This document shows, in pieces, positions 2,511 to 59,357 of a stretch of 64,000 nt of DNA. Origin of the DNA: Dehalococcoidia bacterium (GTDB lineage: Bacteria > Chloroflexota > Dehalococcoidia > Lucifugimonadales > UBA3495). The DNA is taken from NCBI GenBank assembly GCA_034422355.1, contig DAOUJS010000146.1, positions 898 to 64,897 on the forward strand. Reading direction: 5' to 3'. Position 1 is the stretch's first letter. Every line of letters begins with the position of its first letter. The notes under the pieces were generated by a model. The model made no database searches. It was not told the DNA's origin and saw nothing but the letters and a program-made list of their open reading frames with translations. A program made the translations under genes and the position numbers.

Positions 2511-3227
2511 GTGAAATTGCTGGTGATCTCCGGCGGGAGGCACCCCTATCACGAGTCAACGCCGGTGCTGGAGGGCTTTCTCAAGGCGGCGGGGCATGAC
2601 GTGACCATCACGGAGGACGCTTCGGTCCTCGGGCGCGCCGGCGACATGGACCAGTTCGACGCGCTGGTGTTCAACACGCGCCGGGAGAACGTTCCCGATT
2701 TCGGGGACTCAACGCTAACGGTTGAAGAACGGAACGGGATAAAGGACTTCATCAGCTCCGGGAAGGGGTTCGTCTGCATCCACATCGCCACCTGCGTGCC
2801 CCAGGACTGGCAGGAATACCTGGACATCACCGGCGGCGGCTGGATCTCCGGCACGAGCTTCCATCCACCCTATGGCCAGTTCGAGGTTAACGTCAGCAAC
2901 TCCGGCCATCCCGGCGTCAGCGACGTGTCGGACTTTATGACCAACGACGAGCTGTACATGAACCTGGCCATGCGCGACGGCAACAACGTCTTCATCACCG
3001 GCACCGCGGGAGACGGGACCTATCCGTGGGGTCCGGACCGTGTACCGACCCACATGCCCGCGGGAACGTTCCCGTTGGGGTGGACCCGCCGGTACGGCGA
3101 GGGGAAGGTCTATGTCCTGCTGCTGGGCCACGACGGGCAGAGCTTCGAGACCCCCGGTTTCCAGAAGCTGGTGCTGAACGGGGTGGACTGGGTAACCTCC
3201 AAGTCAGGCAGCAAAGCCACGGTTTAG
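2511..3227 (+). CDS. ThuA-domain (trehalose-utilisation-like) protein
   Basis: KLLVISGGRHPYHES...FDALVFNT...GKGFVCIHIA pattern. GTG at 2511 is preferred over the ORF-track TTG at 2505 because the AAGGGGG SD lies 9 nt upstream. Confidence 0.85.
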   Translation: MKLLVISGGRHPYHESTPVLEGFLKAAGHDVTITEDASVLGRAGDMDQFDALVFNTRRENVPDFGDSTLTVEERNGIKDFISSGKGFVCIHIATCVPQDWQEYLDITGGGWISGTSFHPPYGQFEVNVSNSGHPGVSDVSDFMTNDELYMNLAMRDGNNVFITGTAGDGTYPWGPDRVPTHMPAGTFPLGWTRRYGEGKVYVLLLGHDGQSFETPGFQKLVLNGVDWVTSKSGSKATV

Positions 3228-5741: not shown

Positions 5742-6788
5742 ATGATGCAAAGCAGCGAAATACGACTGACAGAACTGTCTCACTGCGCGGGTTGAGCCGC
5801 CAAGCTCAGCATGGAGGACCTGGTCCAGGTCCTGAGTCAGCTACCCACGATCACCCATCCCAACCTGCTTGTGGGAACCGAGACCGGCGACGATGCGGCC
5901 GTGTACCGCATCAACCAGGATACGGCGCTGATACTCACCGTGGATTTCTTCACCCCGATCACGGACGACCCCTACGAGTTTGGGACAATCGCGGCAGCCA
6001 ATTCCCTGAGCGACGTTTACGCTATGGGCGGGCGGCCGATTTTGGCCCTCAACGTAGTGGGGTTTCCGGCGGACTTGGCCCGGGACATGTTGGGGCCGGT
6101 GCTGCGAGGCGGCTACGACAAGGCGGCGGAGGCGGGCTGCCTGATTGCCGGGGGCCATACTGTGGACGACTCGGAGCCGAAGTACGGTCTTTCGGTGGTG
6201 GGGTTGGTGGAGCCGGGGAACCAGGTTACCAACGCCGGGGCCCGTCCCGGGGATGTGCTGGTGCTGACCAAGCCCATCGGCACGGGGATAATCACCACCG
6301 GATGCAAGCAGGGAAAGACTCCCTATCCGGTCCTCCAGGGGGCGGTGAACACCATGGCCACCCTGAACAAGGCTGCGTCTGAAGTGATGATGATGGTGGG
6401 CGTCAACGCCTGCACCGACATCACCGGGTTTGGTCTTATGGGGCATTTGCGTTCGATGGTCCGGGGCAGCAACGTGAGCGCCCGGATTCGGTTCGACCAG
6501 GTCCCAGTCCTTCCGGGTACCTGGGACCTGTTGGAGGAGGGAGTTGTGCCGGGAGGGACTCACCGGAACCTGCAAGCCGTGTCCGACACCGTGCATTGGG
6601 AGCCTGGGACCACGGAGGAGATGCAACTCCTTATGTGCGATGCCCAGACATCCGGAGGGTTGCTAATGGCCGTCCCGCCGGAGGACCGGGACAAGCTTAT
6701 GTCCGGCCTGGATGACGCTGGAGTGTCAGCGGCGATCATAGGGGACATAGTGGATGGCTCGCATCACCAGATCCAGGTGCTGAACTAG
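5742..6788 (+). CDS. selD: selenide, water dikinase SelD, selenocysteine-containing (UGA at 5793-5795 read as Sec)
   Basis: The ORF track starts at 5811, but the same frame reads MMQSSEIRLTELSHCAG-TGA-AAKLSMEDLV from the ATG at 5742. This is the SelD N-terminal SHxAG(C/U)xxK motif. The remainder (GTETGDDAAVY, VDFFTPI, LSDVYAMGG) is canonical SelD. Confidence 0.88.
5805..5836 (+). promoter_or_regulatory. candidate bacterial SECIS hairpin
   Basis: CTCA (5805-5808) pairs with TGAG (5833-5836), and GGACCT (5816-5821) with AGGTCC (5827-5832). Apical loop is GGTCC. The hairpin starts about 10 nt after the UGA. Confidence 0.5.
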
Positions 6789-6880: not shown

Positions 6881-6909
6881 TTGACACTATTTTGCCCGCC
6901 CGATAACAT
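6881..6909 (+). promoter_or_regulatory. sigma-70-type promoter TTGACA-17-TAACAT
   Basis: TTGACA at 6881-6886, 17-nt spacer, TAACAT at 6904-6909. Gives a leader of about 128 nt before the ATG at 7044. Confidence 0.5.
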
Positions 6910-6975
6910 GATTAGCGGACACAGCGTTGCCTCCGCCCGGCCTCGCCACACTATCGGAGCCGCTGTCAGACTGGA

Positions 6976-7033
6976 GACGGGTCCTATCCGCCGCTCCCCG
7001 GCCGGCACGCTGGCATGGGTGCGGCGTTCTCAG
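6976..7033 (+). repeat. dispersed ~57-nt repeat, copy A
   Basis: GACGGGTCCTATCCGCCGCTCCCCGGCCGGCACGCTGGCATGGGTGCGGCGTTCTCAG. Near-identical 5' module to copies B, C and I. Confidence 0.85.
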
Positions 7034-7043
7034 GAGGTGCCGC

Positions 7044-7661
7044 ATGTTGAGAAAACGGCCTGAACAAGTCAAGACCGCCCCTGACCAGGGTAAGGGAGAG
7101 CGCGTCCCGCCGGGTCAGTTCCTCACCACCAAGTTTCCGGTGCTAACCTACGGCTCCACACCCAAGGTGGACCTGGACACTTTTTCGTTAAAGCTGTTCG
7201 GGCTGGTGGAACGGGAGGTCGAGCTTAGCTGGAAGGAGTTCACGGGTCTTGAGTGGACCACGGTCACGGCAGACTTCCACTGCGTAACCCAATGGAGCCA
7301 GTTGGACAATACCTGGGAGGGAGTTACCCTGGCCACGGTCGCAGGGCTGGCGCGGCCAAAGCCCCAAGCCAAGTTCATCATGGCCCACTGCTACGGCGGT
7401 TACACAACCAACCTGCCGCTGGACCTGGCGATGGAAGAGGGGCTTCTCGCCCACAAGCAGGAAGGGAAGGAACTGGGAGAGGGTCACGGTTGGCCGTTAA
7501 GGCTCGTCGTTCCCAGCCGGTACGGGTGGAAAAGCGCCAAGTGGGTCAACGGCATTGAGTTTATGGCGGAAGACGCCCCCGGATTCTGGGAGCAGCGCGG
7601 TTACAACAATGACGCCGACCCGTGGAAGGAAGAGCGTTTCTGGCCTGAATTGACCCGTTAA
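7044..7661 (+). CDS. sulfite-oxidase-like molybdopterin-dependent oxidoreductase (soluble catalytic domain)
   Basis: FHCVTQWS, GWPLRLVVPSRYGWKSAKWVNGIEF. ATG at 7044 is preferred (AGGAGG SD 6 nt upstream). The ORF-track start at 6927 runs through the repeat. Confidence 0.85.
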   Translation: MLRKRPEQVKTAPDQGKGERVPPGQFLTTKFPVLTYGSTPKVDLDTFSLKLFGLVEREVELSWKEFTGLEWTTVTADFHCVTQWSQLDNTWEGVTLATVAGLARPKPQAKFIMAHCYGGYTTNLPLDLAMEEGLLAHKQEGKELGEGHGWPLRLVVPSRYGWKSAKWVNGIEFMAEDAPGFWEQRGYNNDADPWKEERFWPELTR

Positions 7662-7758
7662 CCCATCGGGCAGGCAATCCTGCCGCCTCACTGAACGCAA
7701 AAAGGCCCGGGGCCAGGCGAAAGCCCAACCCCGGGCCGATCCTTGGAACTCTACTACG

Positions 7759-7944
7759 TCAGGCGACCTTCAGTTCCTGTTCCCTTTCCTCACCGTGCGC
7801 CGGAGCGGGAGCAGACTGCTGCTCCACGAGAGGCAGGTCCTTCAGGTAACCACACTGGAGACAACTCAGGTACTTCCCGAAGATGTCCTCGGCAAGATAG
7901 AGGTCGCCACGGCATTTGGGGCAGAACTTGAACTTGATCATCAC
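7759..7944 (-). CDS. small zinc-ribbon protein
   Basis: MMIKFKFCPKCRGDL...CLQCGY (CxxC-x17-CxxC). Strong GAGGAGGAAAGGAG SD directly upstream. Start is GTG at 7944 or ATG at 7941. Confidence 0.5.
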   Translation of the reverse strand: MMIKFKFCPKCRGDLYLAEDIFGKYLSCLQCGYLKDLPLVEQQSAPAPAHGEEREQELKVA

Positions 7945-7990
7945 TCCTTTCCTCCTCGCGGGTGTCTCCTTCCTCTCTTAGCTCACTCAC

Positions 7991-8029
7991 ATTATCAGCC
8001 TTGACACGGCATGTGTCAATATGTATCAT
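7991..8029. promoter_or_regulatory. overlapping divergent promoters sharing a TTGACA-N7-TGTCAA palindrome (HAIR-like HspR operator candidate)
   Basis: Plus strand: TTGACA 8001-8006, 17 nt, TATCAT 8024-8029. Minus strand: TTGACA (rc of 8014-8019), 17 nt, GATAAT (rc of 7991-7996). Confidence 0.5.
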
Positions 8030-8234
8030 ACAGACACTATCTTAATCAATGAGACTTGGCGATGCCGGACGAAGGGCAGTGGATTACTACCTCCTGGAAA
8101 TTCGTACCTTGTCAATCAGTGTCCTACGAATATCATAACAAGCCGGTATTACCTGTCTATTACGACGAGGAGATATTGCCGGATTCGTCTCGACCGGGAT
8201 ATTCGTCAAATCAGGCCCCGTCGGGCTACCTTAT

Positions 8235-8291
8235 CTGAGAACGTCGCCCCATACCAACGTTCCGGCCGGGGAGCGGCGGATAGGATCCGTC
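8235..8291 (-). repeat. dispersed ~57-nt repeat, copy B (reverse orientation)
   Basis: The reverse complement reads GACGGATCCTATCCGCCGCTCCCCGGCCGGAACGTTGGTATGGGGCGACGTTCTCAG. Confidence 0.85.
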
Positions 8292-8309
8292 CCCAGAGGG
8301 AGCAGACAA

Positions 8310-8813
8310 ATGCAGCAACGTTCTAAAACCAGTGTGCAGACCCAGACCAATACGCGCCGCCAGCGGCAGCCTTCTTTGGCAGAAGAGTCACGGTTGGCGA
8401 GGGCAGCCCACACGCGAGCAGACGAAGCCGCCGGGCCTAATGCACGAGACCAGCAACCGGACCCGCAAATGGAAGGGGTTTACATCATCAGCGTGGCTGC
8501 CCGAATCCTGGACGTTCACCCCCAAACGCTGAGAAAGTACGAACGGCTCGGCCTGATTAACCCCGGAAGGACCCTGGGAATGCTCCGGCTGTATTCCAGG
8601 GAGGACATTCGCAGGGTGCGGCTGATCCAGTACCTGTCCGGCAACCTTGGGTTGAATCTGGCCGGGGTTGAGTTCGCCCTTGGGATGGTGGAGAAACTGC
8701 TCCTGTTCCGGGACAGGGTGGATTCGGTATCCAGGGACACCCCGCTTCAGGAGACTATAGAGCAGGAACTGGCCGCGCTGTTCAAGTCCACCGGCCTTCC
8801 ACTGGACGACTAG
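8310..8813 (+). CDS. hspR: MerR-family heat-shock regulator HspR-like
   Basis: YIISVAARILDVHPQTLRKYERLGLINPGRT...RLYSREDIRRVRLI is a MerR/HspR helix-turn-helix, and the gene lies directly upstream of grpE-dnaK. The start is uncertain. ATG at 8310 has a GAGGGAG SD. An alternative ATG at 8469 would remove a 53-aa low-complexity N-terminus. Confidence 0.8.
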   Translation: MQQRSKTSVQTQTNTRRQRQPSLAEESRLARAAHTRADEAAGPNARDQQPDPQMEGVYIISVAARILDVHPQTLRKYERLGLINPGRTLGMLRLYSREDIRRVRLIQYLSGNLGLNLAGVEFALGMVEKLLLFRDRVDSVSRDTPLQETIEQELAALFKSTGLPLDD

Positions 8814-8878
8814 CCGGTGAGCGAGCAGGACTGGCCAGACAGGCGGACTACATCGAAAGCACAGCAGAGGCGTTGTAC

Positions 8879-9472
8879 ATGACGAGAGAGCAGGACGAAT
8901 GGAAGATCCCACAGGAGGAGTCCGGTCCGGGCCAAACGGACGGTCCGGGCGGAGACCCCGATGGAGCAGACCAGGGCGAGTTGACTCCGGACATGCAGAT
9001 CATGAACCTTAGGGAACAGTTGGAAGCGGCGCTGGCCGACGCCGCCAAGTACCGCGGCGAGGTGCAGTACAAGGAGGCCGAGTTACAGACGGAGCGACGC
9101 CGCTCCGCGGAGCAGCGGGCCGACGCTGCCAAGTACCGGGACGAAGACCTGCTCCGGGACCTGCTCCCGGCAATTGAGGGGCTGGACCTGGCACTGAACG
9201 CCCCGGTCAGCGACCAGTGGGGCGATGGGGTCAAGCTGGCTGTACGCGAGATGAAGCGCCGGCTGGAAATTCGGGGCATCAACCTCATCAACGCCACCGA
9301 GGGCCAGCCTTTCGACCCCAACGAACACGATGCTATAGGGGCTGAGGAGTCCACCAAGCATACTCCGGGCCACATTGTCCAGGCAGTGAGAGGCGGATAT
9401 CGCCTCCACGACCGGGTAATCCAACCGGCGCAGGTAATCGTGGCTACAGAGCGGCACGAGACTGAAGAGTAA
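8879..9472 (+). CDS. grpE: nucleotide exchange factor GrpE
   Basis: [41 protein letters not shown] at 8879 is preferred over the TTG at 8873. Confidence 0.9.
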
Positions 9473-9504
9473 CTTTCCGGAAGCTGGAAGAAAGGAGACA
9501 CGCG

Positions 9505-11415
9505 ATGGCTAAAGTATTGGGAATTGACCTGGGTACGACCAACTCAGTCGCCGCGGTGATCGAGAGTGGCGAACCGGTAGTAGTAGAAAACGCCGAGGGG
9601 GCGCGGCTGACCCCTTCTGTCGTCGCCGTCAACAGCCGCACTGACGAGAGGTACGTTGGCCAGATCGCAAAGCGGCAGGCCGTGACGAACCCGGAGAACA
9701 CGCTTTTCTCTGTCAAGCGACTCATGGGCCGCAAGTTCCGGGACTCAGAGGTCCAGAACGCCATCAACAGGCTGCCGTACAAGATTGTCCAGGCTTCCGA
9801 TGGCGATGCTCATGTTGAGATGAACGGTCAGAGCTATGCCCCGCCCCAGATTTCGTCCTTCGTGCTGCAAAAGATCAAGCAGGACGCGGAGGCCAAGCTG
9901 GGCGAGAGGATCACCCAAGCGGTGATCACCGTTCCCGCATACTTCAACGACTCGCAGCGCCAGGCCACCAAGGACGCCGGGACCATCGCCGGACTGGAAG
10001 TGCTGCGGATCATCAACGAGCCGACTGCGTCCTCCCTGGCTTATGGTGTGGACAAGACCAATACCGATGCCACGGTCGCGGTATTTGATCTCGGGGGAGG
10101 GACTTTCGACATCACAATACTCCAACTCGGTGACGGGGTCTTCGAGGTGAAATCCACCAACGGGGATACCTATCTTGGCGGCGATGACTTCGACCAGCAG
10201 ATACTGGAATGGCTGATCGACGAGTTCCGCCAGGAATCCGGCATTGACCTGAGCAAGGACCGGATGGCCCTGCAACGGCTGCGGGACGCGGCGGAGAGGG
10301 CCAAGGTCGAGCTTTCCAGCGTGCTGGAGACGGAAATCAACCTGCCTTTCATTACCGCCGATGCGTCAGGCCCGGCTCACCTGGTGAAGACCCTCGGCCG
10401 GGCCAGGTTGGAGCAGTTGGTAGGAGACCTGATCGCTCGTACCGAAGGCCCGTGCAAGCAGGCCCTCAGCGACGCCGGTCTGAGCGCAAGCGGCATAGAC
10501 GAGGTGATCATGGTCGGCGGCATGACGCGGATGCCGGCCGTCCAGGAGAAAGTCAAGCAGCTGTTCGGACAGGAACCCAACCGGAACGTCAACCCTGACG
10601 AGGCAGTGGCCCTCGGCGCGGCCATACAGGCCGGGGTGCTGGCCGGAGAGGTCGGAGACCTGGTCTTGCTGGATGTAACCCCACTTACGCTCGGGCTGGA
10701 GACCCTGGGCAACGTCTCGACAACTCTTATCCCTAGAAACACGACCATACCTACCCGCAAGGCCGAGACGTTCACCACCGCTGCCAACGGACAAACTACC
10801 GTAGACATTCACGTGCTCCAGGGGGAGCGGCCAATGGCGGCGGACAACAAGTCCATCGGCCGGTTCATGCTGGACGGGATTCTTCCCGCCCCCAGGGGCG
10901 TGCCCCAGATCGAGGTGATGTTCGACATCGACGCCAATGGGATACTCAGTGTGTCGGCCCAGGACAAGGGCACCGGTAAGGAGCAGAAGATAGTGATCCA
11001 GTCCGGGTCGGGGCTTTCCAAGGATGAGATCGACCGGATGGTCGATGAGGCCAAGACCCACGAGGCGGAGGACCAGCAGAGGCGCGCCGAGGCGGAGACC
11101 CGCAATCAAGCGGACTCGCTGGTCTACAGCACGGAGAAACTGCTGCAAGACAACGCGGACAATATCCCCGAGGACCTCAAGGCCGAGGTGGAGGGCAAGC
11201 TGACCACGCTTCGGACTGCCGTATCGGGCGGCACCATTGCGGAGATTCAGACCGCGATGACGGACCTTAATGCCTCGCTGCAACGGGTGGGTGAGGCAGT
11301 CTACTCTCAGTCCGGCGGGGCCGCCGGAGCCGGTGGAGCTACGGTGGATGACAGCCCCGTGGAAGACGTTCCACCGGATGACGACACGGTGGAAGGGGAG
11401 TTCCGAGAGGTTTAG
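9505..11415 (+). CDS. dnaK: molecular chaperone DnaK (Hsp70)
   Basis: [28 protein letters not shown]-type motifs. 636 aa. GAAAGGAG SD. Confidence 0.98.
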
Positions 11416-40190: not shown

Positions 40191-40212
40191 CTGAGAAGCT
40201 GACCCTCCGCGA

Positions 40213-41367
40213 TTACTCCGGCCTTCCACCACGCAGAGGACCCGCGTTCCCGGCGACGAGTCCCGAGCAGGCCAGGTAGAAGTCTTCAACTTGTCCGGCC
40301 ACACGTTCCCACCGGTATTGTTCCACATCTTCGCGGCCTCTGGCGCCCATATAACCTGCAAGCTCGGGGGAGTCGATCAACTGAACCAGGGACGCAGCGA
40401 GGGCTTCCGAGTCCTTGCGGGGGAATAACAGACCTTGCCGTCCGTGTTCGATGATGGCATTGTAGCCGTCTATGTTGGAGGCGATCACGGGTTTGCCGGA
40501 CGCCATCGCCTCGAGCAGCACATATCCAAAGCTCTCCGACCCGGTTGCCGGGGAGCAGCAGATGTCAGCGGTGGCGTAGTAACGCGGCAGGTCCTCGTCG
40601 GAGACCCGCCCTGCGAACACCACGTCCTGCAACGCCCGCGAACTGAGGATTTGCTGGGAGTCCCGGTCAGGGTTTCCCGGCCCGACCACCAGCAGGCGGG
40701 TTTCTGGCCTGTCCCACTTGACCCGGGCGTAGGCTTCGAGCAGGTGCTTCAACCCCTTGCGCCTCTCCAGGCGTCCGACGAACAGGATGTTGGTCTTGCC
40801 GTCCTGGTACTGGGGCCAGGGGGCCGGGTTTTCGGCGAAGCGGCCCACATCAATGCCGTTGGGGATGATCTTGTAATCGCCGGGAAAGACGCTGCTGACG
40901 TAGCGCCGCGCAGCGGGCGAAACGGCAATGCCGCCGTGCAGCCGCTGGTACCAACGCTTGATGATTGGGTGACTCATCCGGTAGAGGTGCTGGCGTTGGT
41001 AGGATGCGTGGAACGTACCGATGTTTACGGCCTGGGAGAACTCGAGGACGCAGAGGGGAAGGATGGGCGCCAAGGGCTCATGCAGGTGAACAATGTCGAA
41101 ATCCTCTTCGCGGAGCAATGCACGCACCTTGGGATAGAGCCACCAAGACAAAGACACCCTGGCAATTGAGCCGCCGCTGGGCAACGGGACCGACCGACCC
41201 AGATGCACGAAATTTTCCCCGTCTTCGCGTTCCCTGGAAGGGGAGTAGGGGGCCAGCACCCGCACGTCGTGACCCACCCGCGTCAACTCGCGGCTCAACT
41301 GTGTTACGTGAGCCGTCACCCCTCCCGGCCAGGTGAAGTCATAGGGTGACACCATTGCAATTTTCAA
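40213..41367 (-). CDS. GT4-family glycosyltransferase (PimA-like)
   Basis: MKIAMVSPYDF..PGGV..H, C-terminal E-x7-E region (GYVLLEAMASGKPVIAS). Confidence 0.88.
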   Translation of the reverse strand: MKIAMVSPYDFTWPGGVTAHVTQLSRELTRVGHDVRVLAPYSPSREREDGENFVHLGRSVPLPSGGSIARVSLSWWLYPKVRALLREEDFDIVHLHEPLAPILPLCVLEFSQAVNIGTFHASYQRQHLYRMSHPIIKRWYQRLHGGIAVSPAARRYVSSVFPGDYKIIPNGIDVGRFAENPAPWPQYQDGKTNILFVGRLERRKGLKHLLEAYARVKWDRPETRLLVVGPGNPDRDSQQILSSRALQDVVFAGRVSDEDLPRYYATADICCSPATGSESFGYVLLEAMASGKPVIASNIDGYNAIIEHGRQGLLFPRKDSEALAASLVQLIDSPELAGYMGARGREDVEQYRWERVAGQVEDFYLACSGLVAGNAGPLRGGRPE

Positions 41368-44503: not shown

Positions 44504-44570
44504 ACTTGCGACGCGTACCGATAGCCACAAGGATGGTACATTTTCGACCTGGATAATGCAACCGATTGGA

Positions 44571-44636
44571 GACGGGTCCTATCCACGGCTCCAAGGCCGG
44601 CTCGCATGTTCGCATGTGTGGGGCCGTATCCGCCGG
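44571..44636 (+). repeat. dispersed ~57-nt repeat, copy I (5' module conserved, 3' half diverged)
   Basis: GACGGGTCCTATCCACGGCTCCAAGGCCGGCTCGCATGTTCGCATGTGTGGGGCCG... The first ~32 nt nearly match copy A. Contains a TCGCATGT tandem duplication. Confidence 0.75.
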
Positions 44637-47268: not shown

Positions 47269-47483
47269 ACGGCTCCTCTGAGAAGTGGTTCCTCCGCGCA
47301 GAGGACCCGCCTTTCCAGCCAGGAACTTCGCCCCATGCCGCCGTGCTGGCCGGGAAAACTCCGGATCCGGGGCTTGAGTAGGATGCTTCCCCCGGTGTGT
47401 TCAGTGTTTGTGGGTGGCAATAGTTAGCATCCAATATCGAGCACCCGGGTAGTCGCCCCCTGACCATCGACTGTATGCCGCTG

Positions 47484-48452: not shown

Positions 48453-48617
48453 GACCGTTCGGAGCGCTTGGCGCAGTCGAAGGGCGTTCCACCAAGAACG
48501 TCGCCCCACACCGCGATGCCAGCCGGGGAGCGTCGGTAGGAACCGTCCCCCGCGAGGGGAAGGTCAGCCGCCGCCACTGGCCGGTCCAGTGGGCCGTATG
48601 GAGCCGACTTTCTCGCG

Positions 48618-49444: not shown

Positions 49445-49505
49445 GGATGTGGCTACCCAAGCGGGTCACGGGGAACTCTGAGAGGTACTGTTCTCAGTAA
49501 GGTAG
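49445..49505 (+). repeat. dispersed repeat, copy G (3' module conserved)
   Basis: GGATG...(53 nt)...TGTTCTCAGTAAGGTAG. Shares GTTCTCAG(A)TAAGGTAG with copy B and has the same GGAT-to-CTCAG length as copy E. Confidence 0.55.
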
Positions 49506-49713
49506 AGGTTCGATGATACCCGTAATGTGGGTTAGGCGCTACCGCTCTATGTGGTTGAGAAAATTGCGAAACCCACTTGTGCGGAGAATGGGCTGCGGAA
49601 GGGGATTAATCCGTGACGACAACCGCAATCGGCAAGTTGGAAGTGGTCAATGAGTTTCAAGGAAAAGTGGCTTGAGTGACACGTCTCCGGTTCGTTTGTT
49701 GTTTGCAAAAATG

Positions 49714-49738
49714 AAAAGGGCCGGAAATCCGGCCCTTT
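49714..49738 (-). terminator. rho-independent terminator (bidirectional)
   Basis: AAAA-GGGCCGG-aaat-CCGGCCC-TTT. On the minus strand the stem is followed by TTTTCATTTTT. Confidence 0.75.
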
Positions 49739-49748
49739 GTTTATCGGT

Positions 49749-49889
49749 TCAGACATCCCGTGATGGGGTTCGGGTAACATCGCGCTTTGGTGGCGGCGGT
49801 GGCGGCGGTGGCGGCTTGGTGACGTTATTAGGCTTCGGATTGAATCCCTTTTTAATTGTGCTGGGTGGAGGATTCGGTACTCTTACCAT
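49749..49889 (-). CDS. 46-aa proline-rich basic peptide (not in the ORF track)
   Basis: MVRVPNPPPSTIKKGFNPKPNNVTKPPPPPPPPPKRDVTRTPSRDV. GGGAGG SD 6 nt upstream. Starts 22 nt after the upstream stop and is followed by the terminator. Confidence 0.4.
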   Translation of the reverse strand: MVRVPNPPPSTIKKGFNPKPNNVTKPPPPPPPPPKRDVTRTPSRDV

Positions 49890-49911
49890 TTCTTACCTCC
49901 CTGTCAGTAAC

Positions 49912-50499
49912 TTATCTCGACCTTAGGTATTCTACCATAATGACGTCGTTTGCGGGAACGACTACAGCGACCACGTCCTCCAAGGGTATACGGCACTCTC
50001 CATCTAGCCATTCAGCGTCAGCGATCCTGAAGTGGCCTCTGTCGGGACTGGACGGCCATTCCTCCGGCCATCCGTATAGTCGTCGGTCTCCTTGTAAATG
50101 TAGAACCACATAGCAGTCGTCATTTTTGAAGAAGGAAGAGTACCATACCGATGGATAAGCGCCTTCTTTGGTAATCTTGATGAATCGAAGCAGTGCATGT
50201 AACCAGTCGTGGTTGAAGACTAAAGAAGCGAGCAACCCCATTAGTACTGCGATTATCGCAGCTAGGATAATATCTACATGTTGACGTTCATGAAAGTCTA
50301 TCAGGGGTGTTTTGTTGCTTATCCATAGAATAAATACTGTGATCGCCTGGATCAAGCTGGTGAAAATCAGAGCCTGGAATATACGCTCGAATTCACTGGG
50401 CTTCGGATGAGATGTGAGAGAATGGAAAATAGCTCCGGCCACGAAACCAGGCAGCAGAAAAGTGAGGATGTTTACAATTTCACTAGATGCCCAATTCAA
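49912..50499 (-). CDS. hypothetical membrane protein (3-4 N-terminal TM helices plus soluble C-terminal domain)
   Basis: 195 aa in a visibly AT-richer segment. TTG start. I cannot place the family with confidence. Confidence 0.6.
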   Translation of the reverse strand: MNWASSEIVNILTFLLPGFVAGAIFHSLTSHPKPSEFERIFQALIFTSLIQAITVFILWISNKTPLIDFHERQHVDIILAAIIAVLMGLLASLVFNHDWLHALLRFIKITKEGAYPSVWYSSFFKNDDCYVVLHLQGDRRLYGWPEEWPSSPDRGHFRIADAEWLDGECRIPLEDVVAVVVPANDVIMVEYLRSR

Positions 50500-50648
50500 G
50501 GTATCGTTCCATGTTCCTGATGTCTAATGGAGGCTCCATAGCCAGACTCAACCCTTAAGAGAGGAGAGCAATTGCCAAGGTGATGATCGGCCATGACCTC
50601 ATGGTACATTATCTCACCAAGGAGGTCTCCAGTCATGAGGTAAATGAG

Positions 50649-50719
50649 CTACCCGGCCTGGGTTCGAACCAGGGATTTCAGCTCCAAAGGCTGACGTGTT
50701 GCCACTACACTACCGGGCA
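50649..50719 (-). tRNA. tRNA-Gln (anticodon UUG)
   Basis: Manual cloverleaf. Acceptor TGCCCGG/CCGGGTA with U1-A72 and G73. D stem GTGT/ACAC. Anticodon stem TCAGC/GCTGA with loop CTTTGGA. T arm CCTGG-TTCGAAC-CCAGG. CCA is not encoded. Confidence 0.9.
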
Positions 50720-54435: not shown

Positions 54436-54690
54436 ATGGACTCCAGCATCATCGGCAAGATCGATAAGGCCAGGAAATACGCTGAGGAGAAAGAGCGGGT
54501 CACCATCTCCGAGTTGAGTGTCCTATTTGAGGGGAACCACAACACCTATCAAGTGGACTTCAGGTCGGGTACTTGGTCTTGTGAGTGCCACTTTTTCCAG
54601 ACCAGGGGTGTGTGCAGCCACATCATGGCCCTTCAACGCATGCTGGCTGGGATGCTGGTCCAGAAGGAGAACGCGACGGCGGCATCCTAA
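54436..54690 (+). CDS. SWIM zinc-finger protein
   Basis: CECHFFQTRGVCSHIMAL equals CxC-x9-CxH. GGAGG SD. Confidence 0.7.
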   Translation: MDSSIIGKIDKARKYAEEKERVTISELSVLFEGNHNTYQVDFRSGTWSCECHFFQTRGVCSHIMALQRMLAGMLVQKENATAAS

Positions 54691-54692
54691 GG

Positions 54693-54750
54693 GACGGATC
54701 CTATCCGCCGCTCCCCGGCCGGCACACTGGCATGAGACGACGTTCTTCAG
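54693..54750 (+). repeat. dispersed ~57-nt repeat, copy C
   Basis: GACGGATCCTATCCGCCGCTCCCCGGCCGGCACACTGGCATGAGACGACGTTCTTCAG. Starts 3 nt after the SWIM stop codon. Confidence 0.85.
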
Positions 54751-54854
54751 TGTGGGCAGTGGCTAACCACTCATTTCACTAGCCGCTGACAACCGGCCAC
54801 CAACCACCCGAGGCACGGGTCCAAGACGCGCGCACCGGCCCCACACACCGGAAA

Positions 54855-54911
54855 CGTGGATCCTCAGCGTCCGCTCCGGTCCTCCGCCAGTGTATGGGGC
54901 AACGTTCTCAG
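54855..54911 (+). repeat. dispersed ~57-nt repeat, copy D (diverged)
   Basis: CGTGGATCCTCAGCGTCCGCTCCGGTCCTCCGCCAGTGTATGGGGCAACGTTCTCAG. Lies 59 nt upstream of the MFS start. Confidence 0.7.
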
Positions 54912-54969
54912 ATATGAAGGGCCGCACAGGTTGCAGCAAGAAGAAGGTCAAACAGGCTCCAAGACCCGC

Positions 54970-56361: not shown

Positions 56362-57720
56362 TTGCAGCAGTCTTTGTTGGGATTTCTCGTTGTCGGACTG
56401 AACCACCGTAGCGCGCCCTTGGAAGTGCGCGAAAGGTTATCCCTTAACCCCGGCCAGATACCCGGCGCATTGGCAGCCATGGACCAATTCGGGGTTCCCG
56501 GCGCTATTATTTCCACATGCAACCGCTCCGAGTTTTACACTCTGGAGCCGAGTGGCCCTGTGGGCGCCGGACACTCCCAAGGACGGATCCTCAACAGCCG
56601 GGGCGGCCCCACCCCGGGTACGGAGCCGCATTCTCAGTGGGGAATCGGTGACCGACGATGCAGGGAATTCCTGGTCGACTACTTCGACATTCCACTGGTG
56701 GAAGTTGAGCGATACCTGTACTGCCACCGGGACCAGGACTGCATCAGACACCTGTTTCGCGTTGCTTCCAGCCTGGACTCCATGATTCAGGGTGAGGACC
56801 AGATCATAGGCCAGGTCCGGGAGTCCCTGGAAATCGCGTTGCACGCAGGGACCATCAAGGGCCCCCTGCTCCAGTTGTTCCAGCAGGCGCTCCGCGTGGG
56901 ACGGAAGGTGCGCCGGGAAACCGGAATCGGAAAGAACGCGCTCTCCGTCAGCCGCGCCTGCGTCGAGATGGCCAGGGGCACACTGGGAGACCTGAGTCAA
57001 CTCCAGGCGATGGTGGTAGGCGCAGGAGATGCCGCCGGGCTGGCTGCGAAAGTCCTGAACCTGTCCGGGGTCAGGGAAATAACCGTGACCAACCGCACCC
57101 ATGAACGTGCGCAGGAACTGGCAAGGAATCTTTCCGGCCGGGCGGTCCCGTTCAACTGTATGCAAGGAGCGCTCACGCAGGCCGACCTGGTAATTTCCTG
57201 CACCGGTTCTCCCGGCTACGTCCTGACTTCTGGGGCTGTAAAGTCTGCAATGGAGGCACGGCCGGACCGCCCGTTGTTCCTGCTGGACATAGCCGTTCCC
57301 CGGGACATTGACCCCGCTTCTGCAAACATCGGCAATGTGACCCTACATGACGTAGACGACCTGGACGCGATTTCCGACACATACCGGCTGGAGCGGACCG
57401 CCGAGGCAGGAGAGGCAGAGCAGGTCGTCGAGGAAGAGACCGGCAAGTTCGTCGATTGGTGCGCCGCTCAAAGGTCTCTGTCCACCGTCGTGGCGTTAAG
57501 GGAGCAGGCCGAACAGATGCGCCTGCACGAGATTCAGAAGACCGTTCGCAGAGCAGACCTGGAGTTCAACCCCGAGCAGATAGCCGCCTTGGACGCAATG
57601 ACCAAAGCGCTGGTCAAAAAGCTGCTACACGGTCCGACGGTCTACCTGAAGGACCACGGCGACTCCGTAGACTTGGGCTTGACCAGGGAAATGTTTCAGC
57701 TACCACAGGAAGACCCATAA
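56362..57720 (+). CDS. hemA: glutamyl-tRNA reductase
   Basis: VVGLNHRSAPLEVRE, STCNRSEFY, ASSLDSMIQGEDQIIGQV, VVGAGD. TTG start (56362, 56374 or 56377). Carries a ~27-aa insertion after the catalytic-Cys motif. Confidence 0.9.
   Translation: MQQSLLGFLVVGLNHRSAPLEVRERLSLNPGQIPGALAAMDQFGVPGAIISTCNRSEFYTLEPSGPVGAGHSQGRILNSRGGPTPGTEPHSQWGIGDRRCREFLVDYFDIPLVEVERYLYCHRDQDCIRHLFRVASSLDSMIQGEDQIIGQVRESLEIALHAGTIKGPLLQLFQQALRVGRKVRRETGIGKNALSVSRACVEMARGTLGDLSQLQAMVVGAGDAAGLAAKVLNLSGVREITVTNRTHERAQELARNLSGRAVPFNCMQGALTQADLVISCTGSPGYVLTSGAVKSAMEARPDRPLFLLDIAVPRDIDPASANIGNVTLHDVDDLDAISDTYRLERTAEAGEAEQVVEEETGKFVDWCAAQRSLSTVVALREQAEQMRLHEIQKTVRRADLEFNPEQIAALDAMTKALVKKLLHGPTVYLKDHGDSVDLGLTREMFQLPQEDP
56582..56637 (+). 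repeat. dispersed ~57-nt repeat, copy E, inside the hemA coding sequence
   Basis: GACGGATCCTCAACAGCCGGGGCGGCCCCACCCCGGGTACGGAGCCGCATTCTCAG. Same termini and length as the intergenic copies. Confidence 0.65.
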
Positions 57721-58446: not shown

Positions 58447-59357
58447 CCCAAGTGAATCGTCCCGACTCCAGGGCGGACAATAATAGTCCCCGCGGCCCCT
58501 GGGGTGTGGTGCTGGTTGCCCACGGCAGCCAGCGGGGGGCCACGTCCGCCGAATGTTCCTGCTCCTGGGGCATTCCGGAGTCGGAAACGCCGGAGTGGTG
58601 CCTTCATTGCCCCAACACTCCCAAAGGACTCAACGACGCCACCGTCCGGCTCCAGGAAGCGCTGGGAGAGGACCGGGCCAGGGTGCAGCTCTCCTGCCTG
58701 GAGTTCATAGAACCCCGGCCGGACCAGACGATTCAGGATATGGCCGCCCAGGGATTGCAACGGGTAGTAGTTATGCCCTACCTGCTTGGCCAGGGAAAGC
58801 ACGTTACCCTGGAAATGGACGAAGTGCTGGATGAGGTGAGGGGCGACCTGCCGGGCGTGGACCTTCATCTGGCCGATGTGCTCGGACCAGACCAGCGGAT
58901 GGCCGATGTGGTGGTGGAACGGGTCCTGTCTCTGGACAGCCCGCCCCCGTCCGAATCGCATACGACAGGAGTTCTGATAGTTAAGGCCGGCACCAAGAAC
59001 CAGTACGACGATTGCATCTGGCTCCACGAGTTGGGCAGTATCGTGGAGTCAGACTTGGGCGAGGGCTACGCCGTGGCCGTAGCCCAGTCCCACTACGGAG
59101 ACCCTACCGTAGAAACAGGTGCAGCCCAACTCGTGGACGACCGTGGGGTATCCCGCATAGTCGTCGTTCCGTATGTCTTCTTCCCCGGCCTGATCCTGAA
59201 GCGAAACGTGCTGGGAGGGTTGGACAGGCTGAGCGCCAAGTATCCGCATATCTTCATGGCCGTTACCCCCCCGTTGGGCACCGACGAAAGAGTGGTCCAG
59301 GTGGCAGCCGACCGCGTCCGCCAGGTGTGGGACCGGGCCGGGCAGCACAGTCACTAG
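58443..59357 (+). CDS. cbiX: two-domain sirohydrochlorin cobaltochelatase CbiX
   Basis: VVLVAHGSQRG..., VVVMPYLLGQGKH, second half VVVPYVFFPGLI. ATGA overlap with cbiC. Has a Cys-rich insertion. Confidence 0.82.
   Translation: MTQVNRPDSRADNNSPRGPWGVVLVAHGSQRGATSAECSCSWGIPESETPEWCLHCPNTPKGLNDATVRLQEALGEDRARVQLSCLEFIEPRPDQTIQDMAAQGLQRVVVMPYLLGQGKHVTLEMDEVLDEVRGDLPGVDLHLADVLGPDQRMADVVVERVLSLDSPPPSESHTTGVLIVKAGTKNQYDDCIWLHELGSIVESDLGEGYAVAVAQSHYGDPTVETGAAQLVDDRGVSRIVVVPYVFFPGLILKRNVLGGLDRLSAKYPHIFMAVTPPLGTDERVVQVAADRVRQVWDRAGQHSH

Follow-up and report, generated by a model that had tools for sequence, protein, structure and literature searches.

A hairpin-forming 63-bp repeat family in a Dehalococcoidia genome, probably a non-autonomous insertion element

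Related short palindromic elements

In REPINs, conserved inverted ends flank a variable spacer, which nevertheless folds into a hairpin (PMC3337134). The repeat described here resembles the REPIN/RAYT systems in that it is tens of bases long, non-autonomous, predicted to form a single-strand hairpin, vertically inherited and lineage-specific (PMC3337134). It has the two inverted, conserved short repeats and the variable hairpin spacer by which REPINs are recognized. However, a GTAG-type 5′ tetranucleotide is absent, and each end is not a clear REP palindrome. Furthermore, the copies apparently number in the tens (5 strict sites per 4.3 Mb), whereas REPINs occur in hundreds, and two copies lie in coding sequences, whereas REPINs are predominantly extragenic. 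The described REPIN/RAYT systems are mostly in Proteobacteria, whereas the host of the present repeat belongs to Chloroflexota.

Rickettsia palindromic elements (RPEs) make in-frame fusions in unrelated housekeeping genes, where they are translated as extra peptide, and they also occur between genes (PMC10969869). The present repeat is likewise a palindromic selfish repeat that lies in-frame in unrelated protein-coding genes, since its presence is predicted to add 21 amino acids to the products of both hemA and a GT2 glycosyltransferase gene. However, RPEs are ~100-150 bp long, A+T-rich and found in obligate intracellular Rickettsia, whereas the present repeat is 63 bp long, has a G+C content of 64-75% and belongs to an environmental Dehalococcoidia MAG with a 4.3-Mb genome. 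We know of no sequence resemblance between RPEs and this repeat.

The Correia, ERIC and Chunjie MITEs are also short and non-autonomous, with inverted ends and stem-loop transcripts, and like the present repeat they insert into leaders and operons without destroying the operon. However, they show target-site duplications when young and have identifiable IS parents, whereas here no duplication was seen at the two defined junctions and no parent IS in the ~110 kb read. Insertion without target duplication and strand-specific imperfect hairpins characterize the IS200/IS605 family. The palindrome-associated elements derived from this family are similar to our repeat in both respects. In those elements the left and right ends each have a hairpin of their own, and insertion takes place 3′ of a tetra- or pentanucleotide that is fixed, whereas our repeat has no fixed 5′ flank; CA or CT often precedes it. 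Integron attC sites were rejected because the ends of the repeat, CTGRGGACG / CGTTCTCAG, are not R″/R′ (RYYYAAC ... GTTRRRY), and an attC cassette array was rejected because the copies are scattered among housekeeping genes in both orientations.

The window, the whole 64-kb stretch of Dehalococcoidia DNA analyzed here, had been the subject of a sequence-only reading, which listed the copies A, B, C, D, E, I and G of a ~57-nt repeat. All the listed sequences were found where they had been placed. In our view the repeats are likely to be a lineage-specific, non-autonomous insertion element of 62-64 bp. We class it with the REP/REPIN and RPE kind, so the kind of element is already known.

Copies in the window and their surroundings

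With three or fewer mismatches allowed, GGATCCTATCCGCCGCTCCCCGGCCGG matched the window at A (6979-7005, +), B (8262-8288, -) and C (54696-54722, +), where no match was expected. This 27-nt 5′ module is common to the three copies with at most one mismatch each. RCGTTCTYAG matched three times in the window (0.33 expected) and ACGGRTCCT six times (1.27 expected). The spaced pattern TCCT-N36-52-TTCTCAG gave six matches, namely A, B, D, E, H3 and the H2 region, against 0.41 expected; this agrees with the previous remark that the distance between the conserved termini is constant. The repeat family is real, and the module of A, B and C is not a chance product.

A core HMM was derived from A, B, C, H1 and two copies of a relative, all six near full length, and membership was tested with models trained without the copy under test. 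The core HMM detected I (5′ 40 nt only, E=4e-6), H2a (5.6e-5) and the 3′ 22 nt of D (0.003). The shared 5′ module proposed for A, B, C and I thus stands as a 27-nt match in the first three (0 expected) and over the 5′ 40 nt of I in the HMM. In the same search of the window, E (E=3), G, H3 and H2b were not detected. A covariance model found D over its full length (24.6 bits, E ~8e-4), E (21.6 bits), H2a and I, and added a diverged copy head-to-head with H1. The orthologue of E in the hemA gene of a relative (L006 7608-7669) was found independently by the core HMM (E=0.0025), and it is far nearer to the consensus than copy E. Thus, copy E is a genuine old copy. D, E and I are diverged or truncated members of the family. 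The full unit is CTGRGGACGG...CGTTCTCAG with a length of 62-64 nt, so that the ~57-nt repeat is borne out as a repeat but its full unit is slightly longer. The copies and possible variants in the window are as follows.

Copy A, 6971-7033, plus strand: full length, 63 nt; covariance model 82 bits
Copy B, 8235-8296, minus strand: full length, 62 nt, nearest to the consensus; 85.8 bits
Copy C, 54687-54750, plus strand: full length, 64 nt; begins at the TAA that terminates a SWIM zinc-finger gene
Copy D, 54847-54911, plus strand: diverged; termini conserved, interior different
Copy E, 56576-56638, plus strand: 63 nt (21 codons), in-frame and sense in hemA (56362-57720)
Copy I, 44566-44627, plus strand: 5′ module and GGGGCCGT block kept, apical part enlarged, without the terminal GTTCTCAG
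Copy H1, 48491-48553, minus strand: full length, 63 nt; HMM E=1.5e-15, 74 bits
H1′, 48553-48616, plus strand: probable, diverged copy; covariance model 15.8 bits, E=0.11 for the whole window
H2a, 47317-47392, minus strand: diverged copy in the MoxR-DUF58 spacer; HMM E=5.6e-5, covariance model E=0.012
H2b, 47278-47312, minus strand: possible short variant, GCGGGTCCTCTGCGCGG...CTTCTCAG; not detected by the HMM
H3, 40191-40250, minus strand: possible variant, with GCGGGTCCTCTGCG and CTTCTCAG in common with H2b; missed by both models

H1, H2a and the probable H1′ are three further copies beyond the first list. G (49445-49505) had been counted as a member; however, it was detected by neither the HMM nor the covariance model, and it sits on a duplication of the flank of tRNA-Gln. 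The duplicated flank accounts for the first 14 nt of G, at the border of a 1.19-kb segment that is strain-specific. A match at 58919 (ACGGGTCCT) is a chance match inside cbiX.

The 1.19-kb segment occupies 49459-50648 in the window and is absent from the 96%-identical OZ242009.1. It lies at the 3′ end of tRNA-Gln(TTG) (50648-50719, -), is flanked by the 7-nt direct repeat GCTACCC, with G on its left edge, and contains a DUF6338 gene (49912-50499, -). From these sequence features, the segment looks like a remnant of a tRNA-targeted integrative element.

In the ThuA-like protein (gene 2511-3227, +), a loop of ~20 residues (GDGTYPWGPDRVPTHMPAG; 3006-3075) is encoded by DNA that weakly resembles the element (covariance model E ~0.08). 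More distant homologues are without the loop, but those at 54-69% identity have the same peptide segment; it was therefore rejected as a copy and regarded as an old protein feature.

The leader of a molybdopterin oxidoreductase gene (ATG at 7044; Pfam) contains copy A, the 3′ CTCAG of which adjoins the GGAGG ribosome-binding site; the relative L004 has the orthologous copy with one difference. Copy B ends 14 nt upstream of a MerR/HspR-like gene (ATG at 8310), downstream of plus-strand promoter-like sites, and is probably antisense in the hspR-grpE-dnaK leader. Copy D is ~58 nt upstream of the likely start of an MFS transporter gene, and copy E is ~10 residues past the catalytic STCNR motif of glutamyl-tRNA reductase. 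Copy I is antisense, between two minus-strand genes. H1 is in the leader of a MoxR AAA ATPase gene and forms an inverted doublet with H1′, the spacer being ~120 nt longer than in the relative L009. H2b directly precedes the ribosome-binding site and ATG of the DUF58 gene, and H3 bridges two genes, taking in the stop codon of one (GT4) and the start of the other (CDP-alcohol phosphatidyltransferase).

The heat-shock operon that has copy B in its leader extends over 8310-11415 (+) and comprises the MerR/HspR-like gene, grpE and dnaK. At 7991-8029 there are two strong sigma-70-like promoter pairs that point towards each other, and the HspR operator (HAIR) consensus near copy B was not above chance. 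Upstream of the MFS gene, a block at 54918-54965 (+; GGGCCGCACAGGTTGCAGCA...CAAACAGGCTCC) is conserved in L006 and L009, the remaining spacer being unalignable; this block may be part of the MFS coding sequence, as its true N-terminal region, or else a leader element. The copy D orthologue of the relative L005 (6553-6605) has an extra ~24 nt (AGCATCGGACAATGTTCCCAGTGT), which looks like a diverged tandem duplication of the 3′ arm of the element.

The copies are often near one another. A and B are 1.2 kb apart; I, H2a/b and H1/H1′ are within 4 kb; C, D and E are within 2 kb; and L001a and L001b, both from a relative, are 150 nt apart. About nine copies of all kinds are present in the 64-kb window, which is probably richer in copies than the genome average. 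Among 185,579 species genomes, the strict 5′ module was found in one, the Dehalococcoidia MAG OZ242009.1 (4.31 Mb), at five sites. Two of these sites, in stretches that match the window at 96% identity, hold the orthologues of A and C. A two-block pattern gave 25 matches in JGI metagenomes, none with the internal consensus and none HMM-positive; all are chance matches. The 71 kb from more distant relatives (hemA 78-86% identical) contained no copy except that of hemA. The six-frame peptide concatenate of the element, too short a query for the method, gave no scored match against a collection of 5.8 billion proteins. The element appears to be confined to one lineage, with a low apparent copy number.

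Anatomy and folding

The conserved ends are imperfect inverted repeats (5′ CTGRGGACGGRTCCTAT, 3′ ATGGGGCRRCGTTCTCAG), of which the terminal 9 bp read CTGRGGACG / CGTTCTCAG. On the given strand, the ends pair as a basal stem with G·U (G·T) wobbles: the 5′ arm (CUGGGGACG GA UCCUAU) is complementary to the 3′ arm (AUGGGG CGA CGUUCUCAG), and two G·U pairs of this stem are invariant in ten sequences. In copy C, the basal stem has one extra base per side. The conserved arms are 15-17 nt long, and the enclosed ~30 nt are variable between copies yet self-complementary. The apical 15-30 nt are subfamily-specific, with GCCGG-N4-CUGGC in A-C and CCGGGG...CCCCGG in E, and the interiors of D and E differ from that of A-C. 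The earlier description of self-complementary interiors that differ between copies was therefore correct.

Two inner pairings were compared. In one, UCCUAU pairs with AUGGGG; in the other, GCCGCUCCC pairs with GGGGGCGGC and the 11-nt stretch GGAUCCUAUCC is bulged. Both gave 86-88% paired cells, against 40-52% in slid-register controls; since they fit equally, the two pairings cannot be told apart. Compensatory changes for the second pairing were read directly in A′, I, L003 and L001b. The RNAalifold consensus showed little covariation, and single copies were no more stable than dinucleotide shuffles (z -1.4 to +0.7). The given strand mostly folds better than its complement, and this G·U asymmetry could simply go back to a single master copy. 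Five of the six frames are open in the consensus copy (B), and 4 or 5 of 6 in individual copies. Thus, with a length of 21 codons and mostly open frames, in-frame loop insertions leave the reading frame open.

We considered whether the copies are a cis-acting structured RNA (a riboswitch, a protein-binding leader, or a hairpin for RNase processing or stabilization) and mark a regulon. A, H1, H2a/H2b and L001b are indeed 5′-leader copies that have the orientation of the downstream gene and end by its ribosome-binding site; the G·U pairs of the stem form on the given strand only; and the 11-nt GGAUCCUAUCC is highly conserved. However, a search of the whole window with Rfam 15 at the gathering threshold gave only tRNA-Gln, and around A and B (6900-8400) nothing relevant appeared even at E up to 10. 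The downstream genes share no theme (Mo oxidoreductase, MoxR, DUF58, MFS transporter, GT2). The copies have no orientation bias relative to transcription: about eight (A, C, D, E, H1, H2a, L001b, L002) are sense to the local transcript, and 5 of ~13 (B, I, L001a, L003, H1′) are antisense. Furthermore, two copies lie within coding sequences and are predicted to be read as peptide, the same leaders of relatives are without copies, sequence conservation follows copy age and not structural position, and folding is no better than that of shuffles. As a general function, the structured-RNA reading is unsupported and largely refuted, and we regard it as highly improbable.

The sequence-only reading had offered a structured RNA as one alternative, and it is this part that is not supported as a general function, given the in-frame coding copies, the lack of orientation bias and the lack of an Rfam match. 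Its statement that no single riboswitch or operator role fits agrees with the varied contexts and unrelated neighbor genes, and its failure to recognize a described motif agrees with the Rfam result.

Insertion sites and the route of mobilization

The hemA gene of the window encodes 452 aa, as do its homologues at 97% and 86% identity. Homologues at 82% identity or less encode 431 aa or similar, with a single 21-aa gap exactly over copy E in the alignment. Since all the outgroups are without the 21-aa segment, the segment is a gain. At the DNA level (junctions are marked by ^), the empty sites read TTACT^GGGGGATCGG (L007) and GCCT^GGGGCATCGG (L009). The filled site of the 86% relative (L006) reads CGCT^TTGGAGGGACGG...GCGTTCTCAG^GGGGAATTGG, with a unit of 63 nt; with longer ends it is CGCT^TTGGAGGGACGGATAC...GGGGCAGCGTTCTCAG^GGGGAATTGG, and its 3′ half is nearly the family consensus. 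Copy E of the window is the same insertion as that of L006, more decayed and mostly in a different reading frame. When HemA was aligned to a solved GluTR (4n7r), the extra residues fell in the 5-residue connection after the catalytic strand. The AlphaFold model of HemA, with a mean pLDDT of 54, was of no use for placing them.

The second in-frame case is the GT2 glycosyltransferase gene of the relative OZ242009.1, which contains copy L001a in antisense. The 273-aa alleles of GT2 carry AENVAPCRWTGRGAADRIRPS, that is AENVAPC(R/Q)WTGRGAADR(I/L)RPS, which is what the element encodes when translated on its reverse strand. This peptide is lacking from the 252-aa alleles, which belong to the same 90% protein cluster and are up to 96% identical. 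The empty site (L039) reads CTCCA^A^GTCTTC and the filled site (L001) reads CTCCA^TTGAGGGACGG...CGTTCTCAG^C^GTCTTC (3′ end also AACGTTCTCAG), again with a unit of 63 nt. At this junction one base is changed, which gives Leu to Met in every filled allele. The 21-aa gains in HemA and GT2 are both without stop codons, as read from the sequence, and both known in-frame additions are discrete blocks of exactly 63 nt. For GT2 as for hemA, the outgroups speak against a loss of the block from a filled ancestor.

Other sites are also polymorphic. In L006 and L009, the orthologous SWIM-MFS spacer contains neither C nor D, and L001b, in the GT2 leader, is common to L001 and L039 and absent from L037 and L038. 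The copies are DNA insertions, present or absent among close relatives, and in-frame copies have been retained in two lineages. Identity is 67-89% between paralogous copies and 95-98% between orthologous copies of the two strains; thus, most copies predate the strain split. The GT2 insertion is younger than most copies. The other full-length paralogues with which this young copy was compared are only 75-81% identical to it, so that its source copy is unseen.

Taken together, the presence/absence of copies, the identical 63-nt unit in two unrelated genes, the insertion in either orientation and the unrelated neighbors argue for a mobile non-autonomous DNA element, and the same four observations argue against a regulatory RNA. 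The element lands in leaders, within-operon spacers and coding sequence, in either orientation and often near another copy. Effects on neighbor genes, for example those of a leader hairpin by a ribosome-binding site, would be incidental and would not account for the existence of the copies.

The local clusters (A/B, C/D/E, H1/H1′/H2/I and L001a/L001b) could also be expected if the block were not mobile as a unit and had spread by illegitimate recombination, template switching or gene conversion at short homologies. The hemA empty target CTGGGG..GATC resembles the 5′ end CTGGGGACGGATC, and the GT2 empty target TCTCCAG resembles the 3′ end TTCTCAG. However, these microhomologies are only 4-6 nt long and were noticed after the fact, whereas hemA and GT2, two unrelated genes, each gained a unit of precisely 63 nt bounded by the same ends. 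Since an enzyme that recognizes the ends explains this more easily, spread by recombination seems very unlikely to us.

No target-site duplication was detected at either of the junctions defined by filled and empty alleles (hemA and GT2), one of which is recent. This result bears on a classical MITE, that is, an internally deleted derivative of an IS with a DDE transposase, moved via its terminal inverted repeats by cut-and-paste or copy-paste. The ends do form a short imperfect inverted repeat (CTGRGRACG), the length of 62-64 bp fits the range of MITEs (<~500 bp, with repeats of 4-30 bp), and IS630-like and IS5-like transposase genes are present 3-9 kb upstream of the window on the same scaffold. 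Moreover, the direct repeats of prokaryotic MITEs fade with age (PMC10969869). However, a length of 63 bp is at the very bottom of the MITE size range, the G+C content of 64-75% contrasts with the A+T richness usual in MITEs, and no IS end like the element was seen in ~110 kb of two genomes. A classical MITE is therefore a poor candidate, if a better one than the RNA and recombination readings. The previous suggestion of a hairpin REP/MITE-like element holds for its REP-like part, on the presence/absence insertions, but not for a classical MITE, on the lack of the duplications that it had proposed to look for.

The upstream flank was taken from the ENA scaffold ERZ23495174 NGUY21-1...scaffold_269 (184.8 kb), which is 100% identical to the window. 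An IS630-like (DDE_3) gene and a split IS5-like (DUF772 + DDE_Tnp_1) gene were located there (L041 1-966 and 5458-6263), and their ends are unlike the element. A 12-nt match to the 5′ end of the element (AGGGACGGATCC, L041 5575-5587, minus) is internal to the IS5-like ORF and is not an IS end; it is probably due to chance.

For the non-autonomous insertion element, mobilization in trans by a host- or IS-encoded enzyme is envisaged. Because there is no target-site duplication, this enzyme would not be a DDE transposase. The route that we favor, tentatively, is a HUH/Y1 enzyme that recognizes single-strand hairpins, like RAYT or the IS200/IS605 transposases; no RAYT (HUH/Y1) gene was found within the loci read. 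It is a more doubtful proposal that the family is the first REPIN-like single-strand hairpin transposon system described in Chloroflexota, with a unit fitted to exactly 21 open codons and placed in coding loops of essential enzymes by an HUH-type or other enzyme without duplication. If this were true, such a system could colonize loops in a free-living bacterium, for example in GluTR ~10 residues from the catalytic cysteine.

Short palindromic selfish DNA inside protein-coding genes is thus not limited to intracellular Rickettsia and occurs also, as a 63-bp unit, in environmental Chloroflexota. The exact junctions (a 63-nt unit and no duplication) constrain the mechanism of mobilization, and since filled and empty alleles coexist among 96%-identical strains, both the mechanism and the effect on the protein are directly studiable. 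For annotation, the copies add 21 residues to hemA and the glycosyltransferase, adjoin ribosome-binding sites in leaders and give rise to spurious ORFs. They should be masked before gene calling or motif searches in these MAGs.

One further annotation concerns selD (selenophosphate synthetase; 5742-6788, +). The frame upstream of the called start at 5811 reads MMQSSEIRLTELSHCAG*AAKLSMEDLV, in which the stop is the TGA at 5793-5795. From the sequence, selD appears to be itself a selenoprotein gene, with this TGA at the catalytic Cys/Sec position. Thus, the selD call of the scaffold itself (325 aa) would be truncated.
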